64,000 nucleotides of DNA from Oscillospiraceae bacterium (GTDB lineage Bacteria > Bacillota > Clostridia > Monoglobales > Monoglobaceae). A model generated the notes under the pieces. That model was not told where the DNA came from and searched no databases. It saw only the letters and a program-made list of their open reading frames with translations. Made by a program: the position numbers and the translations under genes. Positions 1,931-54,673 of this stretch are shown in pieces. The stretch is from assembly GCA_015068845.1 (NCBI GenBank), contig SVJR01000004.1, positions 10,779 to 74,778 of the forward strand. Reading direction: 5' to 3'. Position 1 is the first letter of the stretch. Each line of letters begins with the position of its first letter.

Positions 1931-5455
<3,525 letters not shown>

Positions 5456-22503: not shown

Positions 22504-24018
22504 ATGAGTACTAAAAAAGCCAAAGATGAAATCAAAGAAACTGCAGTCGAGGCAGCAGTAACCGAAAAGGAAGTAAAGAAAAAGACTTCCAAAAAGGCAG
22601 CGGCAGCCGAGCCGGTAGCCGAGGAAAAACCGGTAAAGAAGGCAACCAAGTCCAAAAAAGCTGTAGAGATTGAAGAAGCTGCACCGGCAGCCGAGGAAAA
22701 GCCGGCAAAGAAGGCAACCAAGTCTAAAAAGGCCGAAAAGGTTGAAGAACCCGTAGTCGAAGAAAAGCCGACAAAGAAGTCGACAAAAAGTAAAAAATTG
22801 ACTGACTATCTTGAAGAAACAGCTGAAGAGATTTTGCCCGAGGAAGCCACAGCTGCCGAGAAGGCAGAAAAGCCTGCAAAAAAGACCTCGAAAAAAGCAA
22901 AGCCTCAGGCAGAAGGCGAGAAAAAAGCCACTTCAAAGGAAGTGCAAAAGCAGGCTCTTCAGGAACTGGTTGAGCTTGGCAAGAAGAACGGCGAGCTTAC
23001 CTATGATGATATTCAGAGCAAGCTTGAAGCTGTTGAGATGGACCCCGACCAGATTGAAAGGGTTTATGACTTCCTTGAAAAGCAGGGAATTGAAATTCTC
23101 ACAAACTTTGAAGAAGAGCTTCCTGAGCTGGAAGAGGACTTTGAGATTACCGAGGACGAGCTTGCAGACCTGAGTGTTCCGGACAGCGTCAGCATTGACG
23201 ACCCTGTTCGTATGTATCTTAAGGAAATCGGTAAGGTTCCGCTTCTGTCCGGTGCGGAAGAAGCCGAGCTTGCCCAGAAAATGTCCGACGGTGACGAGGC
23301 GGCAAAGCAAAGCTTGGCTGAGGCGAACCTGCGTCTTGTTGTAAGTATTGCCAAGAGATATGTCGGCCGCGGAATGCTGTTCCTTGACCTGATTCAGGAG
23401 GGTAACCTCGGTCTTATCAAGGCGGTTGAAAAGTTCGACTACACAAAGGGCTACAAATTCAGTACTTATGCAACATGGTGGATTCGTCAGGCTATCACCC
23501 GTGCGATTGCCGACCAGGCGCGTACAATCCGAATCCCTGTACACATGGTTGAAACGATAAACAAGCTTATCCGCGTAACCAGACAGCTGGTTCAGGAACT
23601 GGGCCGTGACCCCCTGCCCGAAGAGGTTGCAAAGGAGCTTAATATGCCGATTGACAAGGTTGGCGAGATTATGAAGATTGCTCAAGAACCCGTGTCCCTC
23701 GAAACACCTATCGGCGAAGAAGAGGACAGCCATCTTGGCGACTTTATTCAGGACAACGAGACCCCTGCACCTCAGGACGCAGCAACATTCAGGCTCCTCA
23801 AGGAACAGCTGGTTGATGTTTTAAGCACACTGACACCCAGAGAGGAAAAGGTCCTTCGCCTGAGATTCGGTCTTGACAACGGCAGAGCCAGAACTCTGGA
23901 AGAGGTTGGTAAGGAATTTAATGTTACCCGTGAGCGTATCCGCCAGATTGAAGCAAAGGCACTCCGTAAATTAAGACACCCCAGCAGAAGTAAAAAACTA
24001 AAAGATTACCTTGAATAA
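22504..24018 (+). CDS. rpoD: Primary sigma factor (SigA/RpoD) with an N-terminal K/A/E-rich repeat extension of about 148 aa
   Basis: Regions 2-4 are canonical ([54 protein letters not shown]; [20 protein letters not shown]). The N-terminus carries three EEKPxKKxTKSKK repeats. Confidence 0.95.
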
Positions 24019-24062
24019 TAAGGACAAAGATAAAATGCACAGACCGCATAAAGCAGTGTGTT

Positions 24063-24090
24063 GTCATTCTGAGGCAACGCCGAAGAATCT
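24063..24090. repeat. Family-A short palindromic repeat (GTCATTCYGAG...GARGAATCT)
   Basis: gtcattctgaggcaacgccgaagaatct. ATTCT/AGAAT and GGC/GCC can pair. Related copies are listed below. Confidence 0.7.
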
Positions 24091-24113
24091 TGCAAGAGTT
24101 TGATTAATTTGCT

Positions 24114-24197
24114 TTATGCTACGAACAAACTTCACCTCTCGGCGTACCAATGTACGCCTTCAGGTAACCCCTTTGGGTTCAGTTTGTCCGTTCTGCA
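24114..24197. repeat. Family-F hairpin element (TTATGCTACGRACAAACTTCACCT...)
   Basis: The outer arms acgaacaaacttcacc and ggttcagtttgtccgt enclose the hairpin ggcgtac-caat-gtacgcc. The 5' 24 nt recur at 51885-51908. Confidence 0.5.
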
Positions 24198-24275
24198 CTA
24201 TTTTCTCTTCGCCCTATGCTGAACTGTTATATAAACAGCCCATCGTGCGCTATTGTACGATGGGCTGTTTGTTAT

Positions 24276-24332
24276 TGTAGGGGGCATTCACGAATGCCCC
24301 GCAATACGGGCGATTCGTGAATCGCCCCTACA
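24276..24332. repeat. Family-B two-hairpin palindromic element (TGTAGGGG...CCCCTACA)
   Basis: tgtagggggcattcacgaatgcccc-gcaatac-gggcgattcgtgaatcgcccctaca. An inverted, near-identical copy lies at 27792-27848. Confidence 0.75.
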
Positions 24333-24335
24333 ATT

Positions 24336-24360
24336 GTCATTCCGAGCGATGCGAGGAACC
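24336..24360. repeat. Family-A repeat copy
   Basis: gtcattccgagcgatgcgaggaacc, abutting the family-B element and the stop codon of micro-ORF 1. Confidence 0.65.
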
Positions 24361-24361
24361 T

Positions 24362-24511
24362 TTACTCTTCTTCCTCATCGTCCTCCTCAGGATATTCGTC
24401 GTAAGAATCAATATACATATCCTCACATTCAAGCTGCAATTCTTTTAATTCTTCAATCACATCGGTCACCTTATTGAACATTTTCAAATACATCTTTTTG
24501 TAATTTGGCAT
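24362..24511 (-). CDS. Acidic micro-protein, 49 aa (paralog 1): MPNYKKMYLKMFNKVTDVIEELKELQLECEDMYIDSYDEYPEEDDEEEE
   Basis: Hand-translated and too short for the ORF track. TAGGAGGG RBS lies 7 nt upstream of the ATG. A paralog at 54268-54426 has the same first 17 residues. Confidence 0.55.
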   Translation of the reverse strand: MPNYKKMYLKMFNKVTDVIEELKELQLECEDMYIDSYDEYPEEDDEEEE

Positions 24512-24692
24512 ATTTAGCCCTCCTAATAAAAAAGTGTGTCACCGGAGTGACACACTCAAAAAACGCATCACTCTGGATAGTTCACGACAACTATTTTATT
24601 AAGCACCAAACGGAGTAATAAAACCAGAGGTACGCTTTTTGCATAGCGTAACTCCATTCGGTGCGAAATATTCATAATAAAATAATTGTCGT
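24512..24692 (-). promoter_or_regulatory. Structured 5' leader with an intrinsic terminator (candidate attenuator or riboswitch-like RNA), copy 1
   Basis: Minus-strand nested stems. P1: CACGACAATTATTTTATTA / TAATAAAATAGTTGTCGTG (19 bp). P2: GCACCGAATGGAGT / ACTCCGTTTGGTGC (14 bp). P3: TACGCT/AGCGTA. Then the terminator GTGTGTCAC-TCCG-GTGACACAC + T6, immediately before the RBS. Confidence 0.5.
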
Positions 24693-24698
24693 GTTTTT

Positions 24699-24727
24699 AT
24701 TATAACACCACATTACATAAATTGCAA
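24699..24727 (-). promoter_or_regulatory. Sigma-A type promoter TTGCAA-N17-TATAAT for the leader and micro-ORF 1
   Basis: Minus strand: TTGCAA (24722-24727), a 17-nt spacer, TATAAT (24699-24704). An identical 36-nt block (24719-24754) covers the -35 and the 27 nt upstream of it in both paralogs. Confidence 0.6.
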
Positions 24728-24760
24728 TAGTTTTCTGTAAAATTTTGTAAATTTTAGGTG

Positions 24761-24830
24761 AGATTCTTCACTTCGTTCAGAATGACAAACAATTTACAGT
24801 ATTGTCATTCCGAGCCTGTCGAGGAATCTT
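24761..24830. repeat. Inverted pair of family-A repeats
   Basis: agattcttcacttcgttcagaatgac (inverted orientation), a 17-nt spacer, then gtcattccgagcctgtcgaggaatctt. Confidence 0.65.
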
Positions 24831-24903
24831 ACTGCCCCCAAAGCCCCACCCTGACAAATATCGCCCAAATCTGCCAATTGGGGCGAAGAGGAGCAACCTT
24901 GAT

Positions 24904-24938
24904 AAAAAGACCCGTATATGATTTCTCAAATACGGGTC
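24904..24938 (-). terminator. Intrinsic terminator on the minus strand, the likely true 3' end of the era-recO-queG-like transcript
   Basis: Minus strand: GACCCGTAT-loop-ATACGGGTC followed by TTTTT. Confidence 0.5.
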
Positions 24939-24953
24939 ATAACTTTACACCAA

Positions 24954-25084
24954 TCAAGTCACAAAAAAATTGCGCAAGATTAGTGATTTAGTGAGCGCCT
25001 GCACTTATCCGGTCAACTATAAAAACCCTTCTCCACATCCAAGTCACAAAAAAATTATTTAGATTTCGTGATTTAGTAAGCGCC
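24954..25084. repeat. Two direct repeats of about 46 bp (period about 85 bp), each with an internal AAGTCAC...GTGATTT inverted motif
   Basis: tcaagtcacaaaaaaatt..gtgatttagtgagcgcc (24954-24999) and ccaagtcacaaaaaaatt..gtgatttagtaagcgcc (25039-25084). Confidence 0.6.
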
Positions 25085-25241
25085 GCGTACTTGTTGCACG
25101 CAAGTCGAGTCTAAATCGCGGAAGATGTGTGATTTTTACGCCTTTTTCGGTCAATTGTAAAATTGATGAAGATTGTTCGTTTAGTCACCCGCCGTGTACT
25201 ATGTGTACACAAGGGCGGCGAAACGGGCGATATTCGCAATT

Positions 25242-38871: not shown

Positions 38872-38963
38872 GGAGAGGTGGTCGAGATGGTTTAAGGCGC
38901 AGCATTGGAAATGCTGTGTACGTTTATAGCGTACCGTGGGTTCGAATCCCATCCTCTCCTCCA
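38872..38963 (+). tRNA. tRNA-Ser (anticodon GGA) with a long variable arm and encoded CCA
   Basis: Acceptor GGAGAGG/CCTCTCC. Anticodon arm CAGCA-TTGGAAA-TGCTG. Variable arm GTACG..CGTAC. T-arm GTGGGTTCGAATCCCAT. A TTGATT-N17-TATACT promoter lies upstream. Confidence 0.9.
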
Positions 38964-54234: not shown

Positions 54235-54265
54235 AAAAAAGACAGTCTGCAGACTGTCTTTTTTT
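54235..54265. terminator. Bidirectional terminator
   Basis: AAAAAAGACAGTCTGCAGACTGTCTTTTTTT between convergent genes. Confidence 0.6.
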
Positions 54266-54426: not shown

Positions 54427-54599
54427 ATTCAGCCCTCCTAAAATTAAAAAATGCGCCAACCGAAGCTGACGCATGAAAAACACACAGCTTCAGTTCTAAG
54501 TTGCTACACTTTTAACTACACCCAAAGGTACAGCGAACCAAAGTGTGCGTTTTTACCAAACGCACACCTTCAGGTGTATATATAAGTTAAAAGTGTAGC
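54427..54599 (-). promoter_or_regulatory. Structured 5' leader with an intrinsic terminator, copy 2
   Basis: Minus strand. P1: GCTACACTTTTAACT / AGTTAAAAGTGTAGC (15 bp). P2: ACACCTGAAGGT / ACCTTTGGGTGT (12 bp). P3: GTGCGTTT/AAACGCAC. Terminator: TGCGTCAGC-TTCG-GTTGGCGCA + T-run. Confidence 0.5.
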
Positions 54600-54605
54600 A
54601 TTGTC

Positions 54606-54634
54606 ATTATACCACTAAACTTTTAAAATTGCAA
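54606..54634 (-). promoter_or_regulatory. Promoter TTGCAA-N17-TATAAT for the leader and micro-ORF 2
   Basis: -35 at 54629-54634 and -10 at 54606-54611 (minus strand). The block 54626-54661 is identical to 24719-24754. Confidence 0.6.
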
Positions 54635-54673
54635 TAGTTTTCTGTAAAATTTTGTAAATTTGCAAATAAAAAT

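Follow-up and report, generated by a model that had tools for sequence, protein, structure and literature searches.

Several described systems come close to the element reported here. The T-box leaders (RF00230) of Firmicutes open with a long, irregular stem that has a hinge and an internal loop on its 3' side, after which antiterminator and terminator compete. The pyr/PyrR leaders of Bacillus subtilis and the trp-type attenuators, with their 1:2, 2:3 and 3:4 pairings, use chained exclusive pairings that lead to premature termination in the 5' leader. In the ZTP/pfl, preQ1-I, c-di-GMP-II and fluoride riboswitches, the 3' tail closes on an upstream loop and doubles as the switching strand of the expression platform. 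The c-di-GMP-I and c-di-GMP-II riboswitches of Clostridia are present several times in a genome and control many unlinked genes for surface or secreted proteins and regulators. We analyzed a window of 64,000 nucleotides from Oscillospiraceae bacterium (GCA_015068845.1, contig SVJR01000004.1, positions 10,779 to 74,778) that carries on its minus strand two copies of a module made of a promoter, a structured leader RNA, an intrinsic terminator and a micro-open reading frame (micro-ORF). We put the probability at about three in four that both copies are members of a large Clostridia family, missing from Rfam 15, of transcription attenuators located in 5' leaders. The family would be a new one of a known kind, i.e., an intrinsic terminator in a 5' leader that acts conditionally, as predicted from the sequences, and it is abundant in Clostridia of the gut and rumen.

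Leader architecture and comparison with known classes

The promoter of copy 1 (24699..24727, minus strand, as are all coordinates of both copies) consists of a -35 box TTGCAA (24727-24722), a 17-nt spacer, TG and a -10 box TATAAT (24704-24699); the two boxes and the spacer length are those of the original prediction. It scores 10/12 against the consensus and is the sole promoter-like site that a promoter scan returned within 24200-24800. The -35 box is included in a 34-nt upstream block (24721..24754; AAATTTACAAAATTTTACAGAAAACTATTGCAAT) containing a TTTACA-N4-TTTACA direct repeat. Judging by the spacing, transcription would start near 24693, and the hairpin begins 6 nt past the -10 box. RNAfold returned the same nesting of three helices that had been drawn for the leader of about 180 nt. 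The long hairpin (24583..24693) is composed of P1 with 19 bp (24693-24675 with 24601-24583), a 10-nt 5' hinge bulge (UGAAUAUUUC; 24674-24665), P2 with 14 bp including two G-U pairs (24664-24651 with 24616-24603), and P3 with 6 bp (24650-24645 with 24636-24631, loop 24644-24637). The 14-nt 3'-side internal loop J (CCUCUGGUUUUAUU) was found at 24630-24617, where it had been placed. The fold energy of the leader is -70.3 kcal/mol, compared with -37.9 +/- 3.95 kcal/mol in dinucleotide shuffles (z = -8.2), and none of the 200 shuffles was as low.

The hairpin is followed by the expected 27-nt linker and a strong intrinsic terminator (24528..24557), GAGTGTGTCAC-TCCG-GTGACACACTT, having 11 bp, a UCCG loop, a U-tract and a stability of -18.2 kcal/mol. 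The ribosome-binding site TAGGAGGG (24525-24518, with AGGAGG at 24524-24519) and a micro-ORF of 49 aa with an acidic tail (MPNYKKMYLKMFNKVTDVIEELKELQLECEDMYIDSYDEYPEEDDEEEE; 24511-24362) lie immediately downstream, again as described before. Two segments of the leader are of particular importance: the switch sequence Y (CCAGAGUGAUGCGUUUUUU; 24558..24576), and X'J (AAAAAGCGUACCUCUGG; 24624..24640), which comprises the A-run, the 3' strand of P3 and the start of loop J. The linker segment CCAGAGUGA had been proposed to pair in two ways, and both alternatives were recovered, one with the loop plus the 3' strand of P3 and the other with the left arm of the terminator. For the first of these, a contact between CUCUGG and CCAGAG had been given; the contact stands, and its extent has to be revised, with the pairing running on into the invariant A-run and the YGCR of the P3 3' strand to reach 15-20 bp. 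In copy 1, the Y:X'J duplex has an energy of -18.6 kcal/mol and the duplex of Y with the terminator left arm -11.9 kcal/mol. A 35-codon ORF starting at an ATG in the hinge (24675-24568) was considered as a leader peptide and rejected, as it has no ribosome-binding site and its ATG is not kept in other leaders.

The second copy (54661-54268) has a like architecture with other stem sequences. Its upstream block and promoter (54606..54661; TTGCAA 54634-54629, 17-nt spacer, TG, TATAAT 54611-54606) are followed by a leader (54446..54600) identified by both RNAfold and the covariance model described below. It contains P1 (54600-54585 with 54517-54502), the hinge (54584-54578), P2 (54577-54569 with 54526-54518), P3 (54568-54558 with 54552-54542), loop J (54541-54527), X'J (54554-54535), Y (54496-54476) and the terminator (54474-54451), to which its U-tract is added. 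The ribosome-binding site (54440-54433), a micro-ORF of 52 aa (54426-54268) and a further terminator 3' of it (54235..54264) complete the copy, for which the duplex energies are -21.8 kcal/mol (Y:X'J) and -12.6 kcal/mol (Y with the terminator left arm). The coding regions of the two copies are 85% identical across a 168-nt repeat, and the sequences of P1, P2 and P3 have diverged with the architecture retained. The 34-nt block at the -35 box is identical between the copies (24721-24754 and 54628-54661) and recurs in loci L001-L004 and L027; by its sequence and position it may be an UP element or a factor-binding site that layers promoter-level control onto the attenuator.

A cmscan search of the whole window against Rfam 15 at the gathering threshold returned only one tRNA (38872-38960). 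Within 24000-25100, at E <= 10, there were chance-level matches only, far under threshold, and among ten metagenome loci searched at E <= 1 no match lay on a leader. Full-text literature searches did not find a description of the element; it may be among the 3161 unnamed candidate RNAs from microbiomes that were catalogued in 2021. The earlier statement that no known class can be recognized thus holds against Rfam 15 and these searches, which is not proof that the element has never been described.

The motifs of T-box, PyrR, ANTAR (double hexaloop) and RAT elements were compared with the family consensus, the T-box also through the Rfam scans, and none of them is conserved in the family. For the T-box there was no RF00230 match at E <= 10; the antiterminator of the leader is a simple hairpin with a UUUUUCR loop and not a 7-nt UGGN bulge, and the downstream genes are not those of aminoacyl-tRNA synthetases or of amino-acid biosynthesis or transport. 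The PyrR binding loop ARUCCAGAGAGGYU is not conserved either: the copy 1 linker resembles it by chance (AUCCAGAGUGA), and the family has only GAG-YY-R at that place. The leader further differs from the pyr and trp-type systems in that its anti-antiterminator would be a long-range pseudoknot from the apex of a 30-bp hairpin to the linker instead of a local hairpin, in having no leader peptide, and in downstream genes unrelated to pyrimidine or amino-acid metabolism. From the pseudoknot riboswitches it is set apart by the lack of any matching Rfam model, by far longer stems and by a gene context that points to no ligand. The likeness to the c-di-GMP-I and c-di-GMP-II riboswitches is functional only and concerns their regulons; there is no structural similarity and no cmscan match, and no GGDEF, EAL or motility genes occurred among the listed downstream families (68 products). 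Two generic features of attenuators are present, i.e., a G+C-rich stem-loop with a U-tract between promoter and start codon, and a conserved alternative pairing that hides the 5' arm of the terminator (RNAalifold; 95% paired, with compensatory changes).

Homologous leaders and covariation

Homologues were collected with a back-translated scan of the micro-protein over one genome per species, which gave 224 tblastn-confirmed loci, of which 80 were fetched (the protein-selected set). All 80 come from metagenome-assembled genomes of Clostridia, namely Monoglobaceae, Oscillospiraceae, Ruminococcus, Christensenellales, Peptococcaceae and Syntrophomonas, and some genomes hold multiple copies. Together with the two window copies, the 80 loci provide 82 upstream regions, and over 50 of these contain the same leader. 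In the family consensus the base of the hairpin is formed by UGC-S-A-N-AC paired to GU-N-U-S-GC; next come a 5' hinge bulge that includes AAUA, P2 (variable), the apex UUNGGY-AAAAA-YGC, a 3' loop opening with RCUC, the linker GAG-YY-R-YGCR-UUUUU-YR and then the terminator.

Thirty-one compact leaders were put into a plain MAFFT alignment, from which a covariance model (R1) was built; its structure comprised P1, the terminator and a P3 of provisional placement, and the E-values of R1 are rough. R1 matched copy 1 with 77.8 bits (24529-24693) and copy 2 with 105.5 bits, and found no third copy in the window. Among the 80 protein-selected loci it gave 57 plus-strand matches of 50-143 bits, all but a few of which stop 20-70 nt ahead of the micro-ORF; additional matches in L001 and L066 sit before further micro-ORF paralogues. 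A metagenome scan with the pattern AAAAAYGCNNNCTC-N(42-70)-GYRTTTTTYRTGCG yielded at least 120 stretches, and all 99 metagenome loci run through R1 were full-length matches (59-118 bits). Homologous leaders, whose absence would have spoken against a real element, therefore occur in many genomes. As a separate observation, the leader at L002:2871-2978 has an internal deletion that joins the 5' strand of P1 almost straight to the linker and terminator.

The position of these matches bears on another possible explanation, in which a terminated transcript of about 160 nt acts in trans as a small RNA and the micro-ORF is a mere neighbour reached by occasional read-through. Such a role would suit the strength of the terminator and the case of L047:2496-2660, where a complete leader is followed by a second promoter and leader and not by a gene. 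However, 56 of the 57 matches are upstream of a relative of the micro-ORF (55 directly, one with the second leader copy in between), nearly all metagenome matches have a gene 14-80 nt further on, no separate promoter for the micro-ORF lies between terminator and ribosome-binding site, and the antiterminator is conserved. We regard a trans-acting small RNA as very improbable.

Covariation was counted on alignment A5, derived with R1 from the protein-selected set. In P1, 12 of 13 pairs vary on both sides and 95.6% of the cells are paired; the terminator has 7 of 8 such pairs (97.2% paired), and the two helices of the antiterminator have 4 of 5 and 1 of 5 (95.6% and 94.9%). The pseudoknot between X'J and Y, which is outside the structure given to R1, varies on both sides in 10 of 14 pairs with 89.6% of the cells paired, an example being column pair 165/262 (UA 22, CG 16, UG 9). 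When the structures were shifted by 1-3 columns, only 34-57% of the cells paired, and none of 500 shuffles reached the observed values. RNAalifold, applied to the plain MAFFT alignment of the 31 compact leaders, independently predicted a P1 of 13 pairs (e.g., CG 14 / GC 13 / UA 2 / AU 1 and AU 13 / CG 11 / GC 5) as well as the antiterminator hairpin, in which the linker pairs with the terminator left arm. By pair counts, covariation is thus strong in P1, the terminator, the antiterminator and the anti-antiterminator contact that the search model did not contain. The antiterminator and anti-antiterminator logic suggested in the original prediction is supported by covariation in both of the mutually exclusive pairings.

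An alignment-free comparison of cognate with non-cognate strands gave the same picture. The energies were -17.6 vs -12.8 kcal/mol for the X'J:Y duplex, -11.8 vs -9.3 kcal/mol for Y with the terminator left arm, -16.5 vs -6.4 kcal/mol for the base of P1, and -11.5 vs -6.0 kcal/mol for the inner stems (permutation p <= 2e-4 in all comparisons), and the result recurs in the metagenome set. All 53 hairpins examined had z < -5.8.

The strand on which the structure is found matters for a further explanation, that the element is an inverted repeat acting as DNA with no role as RNA, such as a mobile palindrome of the repetitive extragenic palindrome (REP) or miniature inverted-repeat transposable element (MITE) type, or a site of recombination. 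Copy 1 is indeed flanked by REP-like palindromes, and similar palindromic inserts split the leader from the ORF in L043 and L062. Nevertheless, R1 scores no more than 30-37 bits for its reverse-strand matches, compared with 50-143 bits for those of the forward strand, and the many G-U pairs would turn into A-C mismatches on the opposite strand. These frequent G-U pairs and the far weaker reverse-strand matches indicate that the structure is that of RNA in the sense of the minus-strand transcript. In addition, position and orientation are fixed relative to promoter, terminator and gene, and the non-palindromic long-range pairing covaries. The strand asymmetry largely refutes a DNA-level explanation, to which we give almost no credence.

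A proposed switch and its possible effectors

Based on these pairings, we propose a switch made of five serial segments: X, the 5' strand of P3; X'J, in which A5-YGCR is joined to the RCUC that opens loop J; Y, the linker (GAG..YGCR-U5); and Z and Z', the left and right arms of the terminator. From a strong sigma-A-type promoter, transcription would begin on the first base of a hairpin of 100-150 nt, with P1, the A-rich 5'-side hinge bulge, P2, the long 3'-side loop J and the apical P3 in this order. In the ON state, P3 (X:X') would remain intact and Y would take Z once it has been made, so that the antiterminator forms and the polymerase enters the gene. In the OFF state, X'J would capture Y, leaving Z free to pair with Z', and transcription would stop at the U-tract. 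The Y:X'J helix of 15-20 bp would be a pseudoknot that crosses P1 and P2 and competes with P3. The invariant U5 between Y and Z may serve as a pause site that buys time for the choice.

In 51 of 53 leaders, the terminator surpasses the antiterminator in stability, so read-through must rely on an antiterminator that forms first, kinetically, as a local hairpin, and termination on a Y that X'J has already captured. The same count also suits another account, a factor-independent attenuator, constitutive or kinetic, that doubles as a 5'-end stabilizer and has either a fixed low read-through or a response to polymerase speed or nucleoside triphosphate supply at U5. The start of P1 at the deduced +1, which would bury the 5' end in a helix, the invariance of U5, and the want of any ligand-like theme among the genes fit this account as well. 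A five-segment switch with covarying exclusive pairings is, on the other hand, hard to explain without conditional use, and we consider the factor-independent account distinctly unlikely.

Regarding the geometry, the pseudoknot spans P1 and P2, and its connecting strands of about 8 nt are too short for a straight hairpin, so that a sharp bend at the hinge has to be assumed. The two arms of the hairpin are alike in length (about 12-19 bp each) with the one-sided bulge between them, and a bend at the hinge would return the apex to the hairpin base.

Our best guess is an OFF switch in which a factor acting in trans, i.e., a metabolite, a second messenger or an RNA-binding protein, stabilizes the bent and pseudoknotted fold. 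It is possible, and we propose this tentatively, that the leader is a new riboswitch class: the bent-hairpin pseudoknot would bind a global small-molecule signal (e.g., a nucleotide second messenger, or a metabolite of envelope stress or growth state) and would in this way turn off, in concert, dozens of unlinked genes that encode surface proteins, small XRE regulators and helical micro-proteins in Oscillospirales, Christensenellales and Monoglobales. A protein-dependent switch is about as likely. A dedicated protein would bind P3 (the UUNGGY-A5 loop) and/or the hinge, lock P3, leave the linker available for the antiterminator and so turn the genes ON in the style of PyrR, LicT or ANTAR, with no small-molecule pocket. 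Such a protein would be consistent with long stems that are purely structural and with the several copies per genome, and the highly diverse accessory genes are what the regulon of a single protein would comprise; the alternative pairings are equally compatible with it. The flanks, however, show no conserved neighbour gene for such a protein, the PyrR loop, the ANTAR double hexaloop and RAT are not conserved, and Rfam gives no match.

Several points weigh against the pseudoknotted attenuator and its reading as a riboswitch. A pseudoknot on a straight hairpin is rejected, since P1 and P2 together form about 32 bp when straight and about 8 nt of connecting single strand is insufficient; the lengths of the arms and of the linkers are uncorrelated (r = -0.18); and extended variants with an extra branch hairpin suit the bent geometry less obviously. 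In its modelled register on A5, P3 varies on both sides in 4 of 7 pairs and only 75.1% of the cells are paired. The low value is due to a register that differs among subfamilies, so that the MAFFT-based placement of P3 (75% paired) suits some of them only; the A-run lies in the loop in copy 1 and pairs with a U-run in most other leaders. The metagenome set was pre-filtered by a pattern fixing part of the pseudoknot and so offers little independent covariation there. Finally, few unpaired nucleotides are conserved, which is atypical for metabolite-binding pockets and fits a protein-dependent switch, and the downstream genes are too varied to indicate a ligand.

Downstream genes, the micro-protein and the surroundings of copy 1

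The leader and the micro-ORF had been described as one module, which is correct for the window and for most protein-selected loci. The association is not obligate, as metagenome leaders mostly precede other genes. A regular-expression screen found the micro-ORF behind 0 of 121 metagenome leaders, and translations show only two distant relatives (L150 and L167), so we rejected the idea that the leader is specific to it. In most metagenome loci a gene starts 14-80 nt past the terminator on the same strand. The next gene was identified for most of these loci, and Pfam was run on 68 dereplicated downstream products. Thirteen of the 68 are BspA-type leucine-rich-repeat surface proteins, and small XRE helix-turn-helix proteins occur in many copies; the other families include AMP-binding enzymes, Ricin-lectin, CHAP, M23 peptidase, Ltp lipoprotein, SPFH and zinc-ribbon membrane proteins. 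The AMP-binding enzymes after the leaders of L091, L142, L146, L148 and L176 share the N-terminus (L)TGYPSIDKPW(L/M)KYY. In L089 and L156, leaders stand before very large proteins, which extend over no fewer than 1389 and 1820 aa before the contig ends cut them and which resemble nonribosomal peptide synthetases by reading alone, and the leader may also gate secondary-metabolite genes.

A phage origin was considered and rejected. A search of viral contigs with the micro-protein was empty, and the leader pattern was found on only 8 viral contigs, where the leader is ahead of one small conserved gene family that is HIRAN-like by reading alone. The 24 long metagenome loci represent heterogeneous chromosomal neighbourhoods, including dockerins and housekeeping genes, with no phage signature.

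The micro-ORF itself is conserved in frame, as would be expected of a translated gene. A word-indexed protein search gave ten relatives. Across the loci it has 35-61 codons and the motif M-[PE]-[DN]-Y-K-K-[ML]-Y-x-x-[LM]-F-N-x-[VI]-T-D-x-I-E-x-L. By codon position (1, 2 and 3), the pairwise differences are 0.34, 0.19 and 0.56, and copies 1 and 2 differ at 3, 3 and 16 sites, respectively; this excess at the third position is a coding signature. AlphaFold2 predicted a single helix (residues 2-39) with a disordered acidic tail (mean predicted local distance difference test score, 83.6). Binding to a partner is the probable mode of action of the micro-protein. When 1.84 billion cluster representatives were searched with a profile, 1351 clusters (50% identity) were recovered at E <= 1e-3. 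Almost all of the best 150 of these have 37-116 aa, which indicates a stand-alone small-protein family. Pfam, NCBIfam and PHROGs gave no match above cut-off, only weak ones; weak matches to the C-terminus of PRK06851 (E about 0.003-0.015) were likewise below cut-off.

About 25 of the 80 micro-ORF loci have no leader. They carry a divergent XRE gene (72-120 aa) with palindromic operators over the shared promoter, and include L005, L010, L017, L018, L025, L064 and L073, where the XRE gene is about 350 nt upstream of position 3001. Perfect palindromes, e.g., GGACAAATAGTCC ... GGACTATTTGTCC, overlap the micro-ORF promoter in these loci, giving a two-gene cassette that is switch-like. The arrangement is reminiscent of SinI/SinR-type pairs, a small helical antagonist next to an XRE repressor: here, too, the gene for a helical protein of 40-60 aa adjoins that of a small XRE repressor, and operators lie at the promoter they share. 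The likeness concerns the micro-protein only, which has no sequence similarity to SinI, and the genes are divergent here instead of tandem. By this analogy, the pairing with an XRE repressor suggests, as a lead, that the micro-protein is a SinI-like antagonist.

The surroundings of copy 1 contain additional features. A terminator 3' of the micro-ORF (24233..24267, minus strand) was read from the sequence and is missing from the terminator scan because its loop is 10 nt; it makes the copy 1 micro-ORF monocistronic and convergent with rpoD. Between this terminator and the end of rpoD (24095-24230, minus strand) is a three-way junction in which ACAAACU...AGUUUGU encloses two hairpins. It folds with -42.1 kcal/mol (z = -5.2, none of 200 shuffles as low), has no Rfam match and could be a small RNA or a repeat element. 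The REP-like palindromes that flank copy 1 are located at 24275-24355 (GUAGGGGCGAUUCACGAAUCGCCC followed by GGGGCAUUCGUGAAUGCCCCCUAC) and 24762-24786 (GTCATTCTGAACGAAGTGAAGAATC), both on the minus strand. Each is single in the window, and related units occur near the leaders of L001 and L009 and as the inserts between leader and ORF in L043 and L062. Upstream of copy 1, a 45-nt direct repeat is present in two intergenic copies (24955-24999 and 25040-25084; 80% identical, 85 nt apart). Tandem repeats of 72 nt (22605-22748, plus strand; 83% identical) occur in the rpoD (sigma-A) ORF, in its N-terminal region, and encode lysine- and glutamate-rich units.

The micro-protein is controlled in two alternative ways, through the RNA leader or through a divergent XRE repressor, which suggests that the amount made is important. 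For studies of co-transcriptional RNA folding, the leader would offer a natural five-segment switch of clean design, with a pseudoknot and an antiterminator in competition. If our interpretation is right, the abundant and little-studied Clostridia of gut and rumen (relatives of Ruminococcus, Christensenellales and Monoglobus) share an RNA gate before many unlinked accessory genes, including cell-wall hydrolases. Identification of the effector would then reveal a new regulon in them, and perhaps a signalling molecule or RNA-binding regulator that is new as well.

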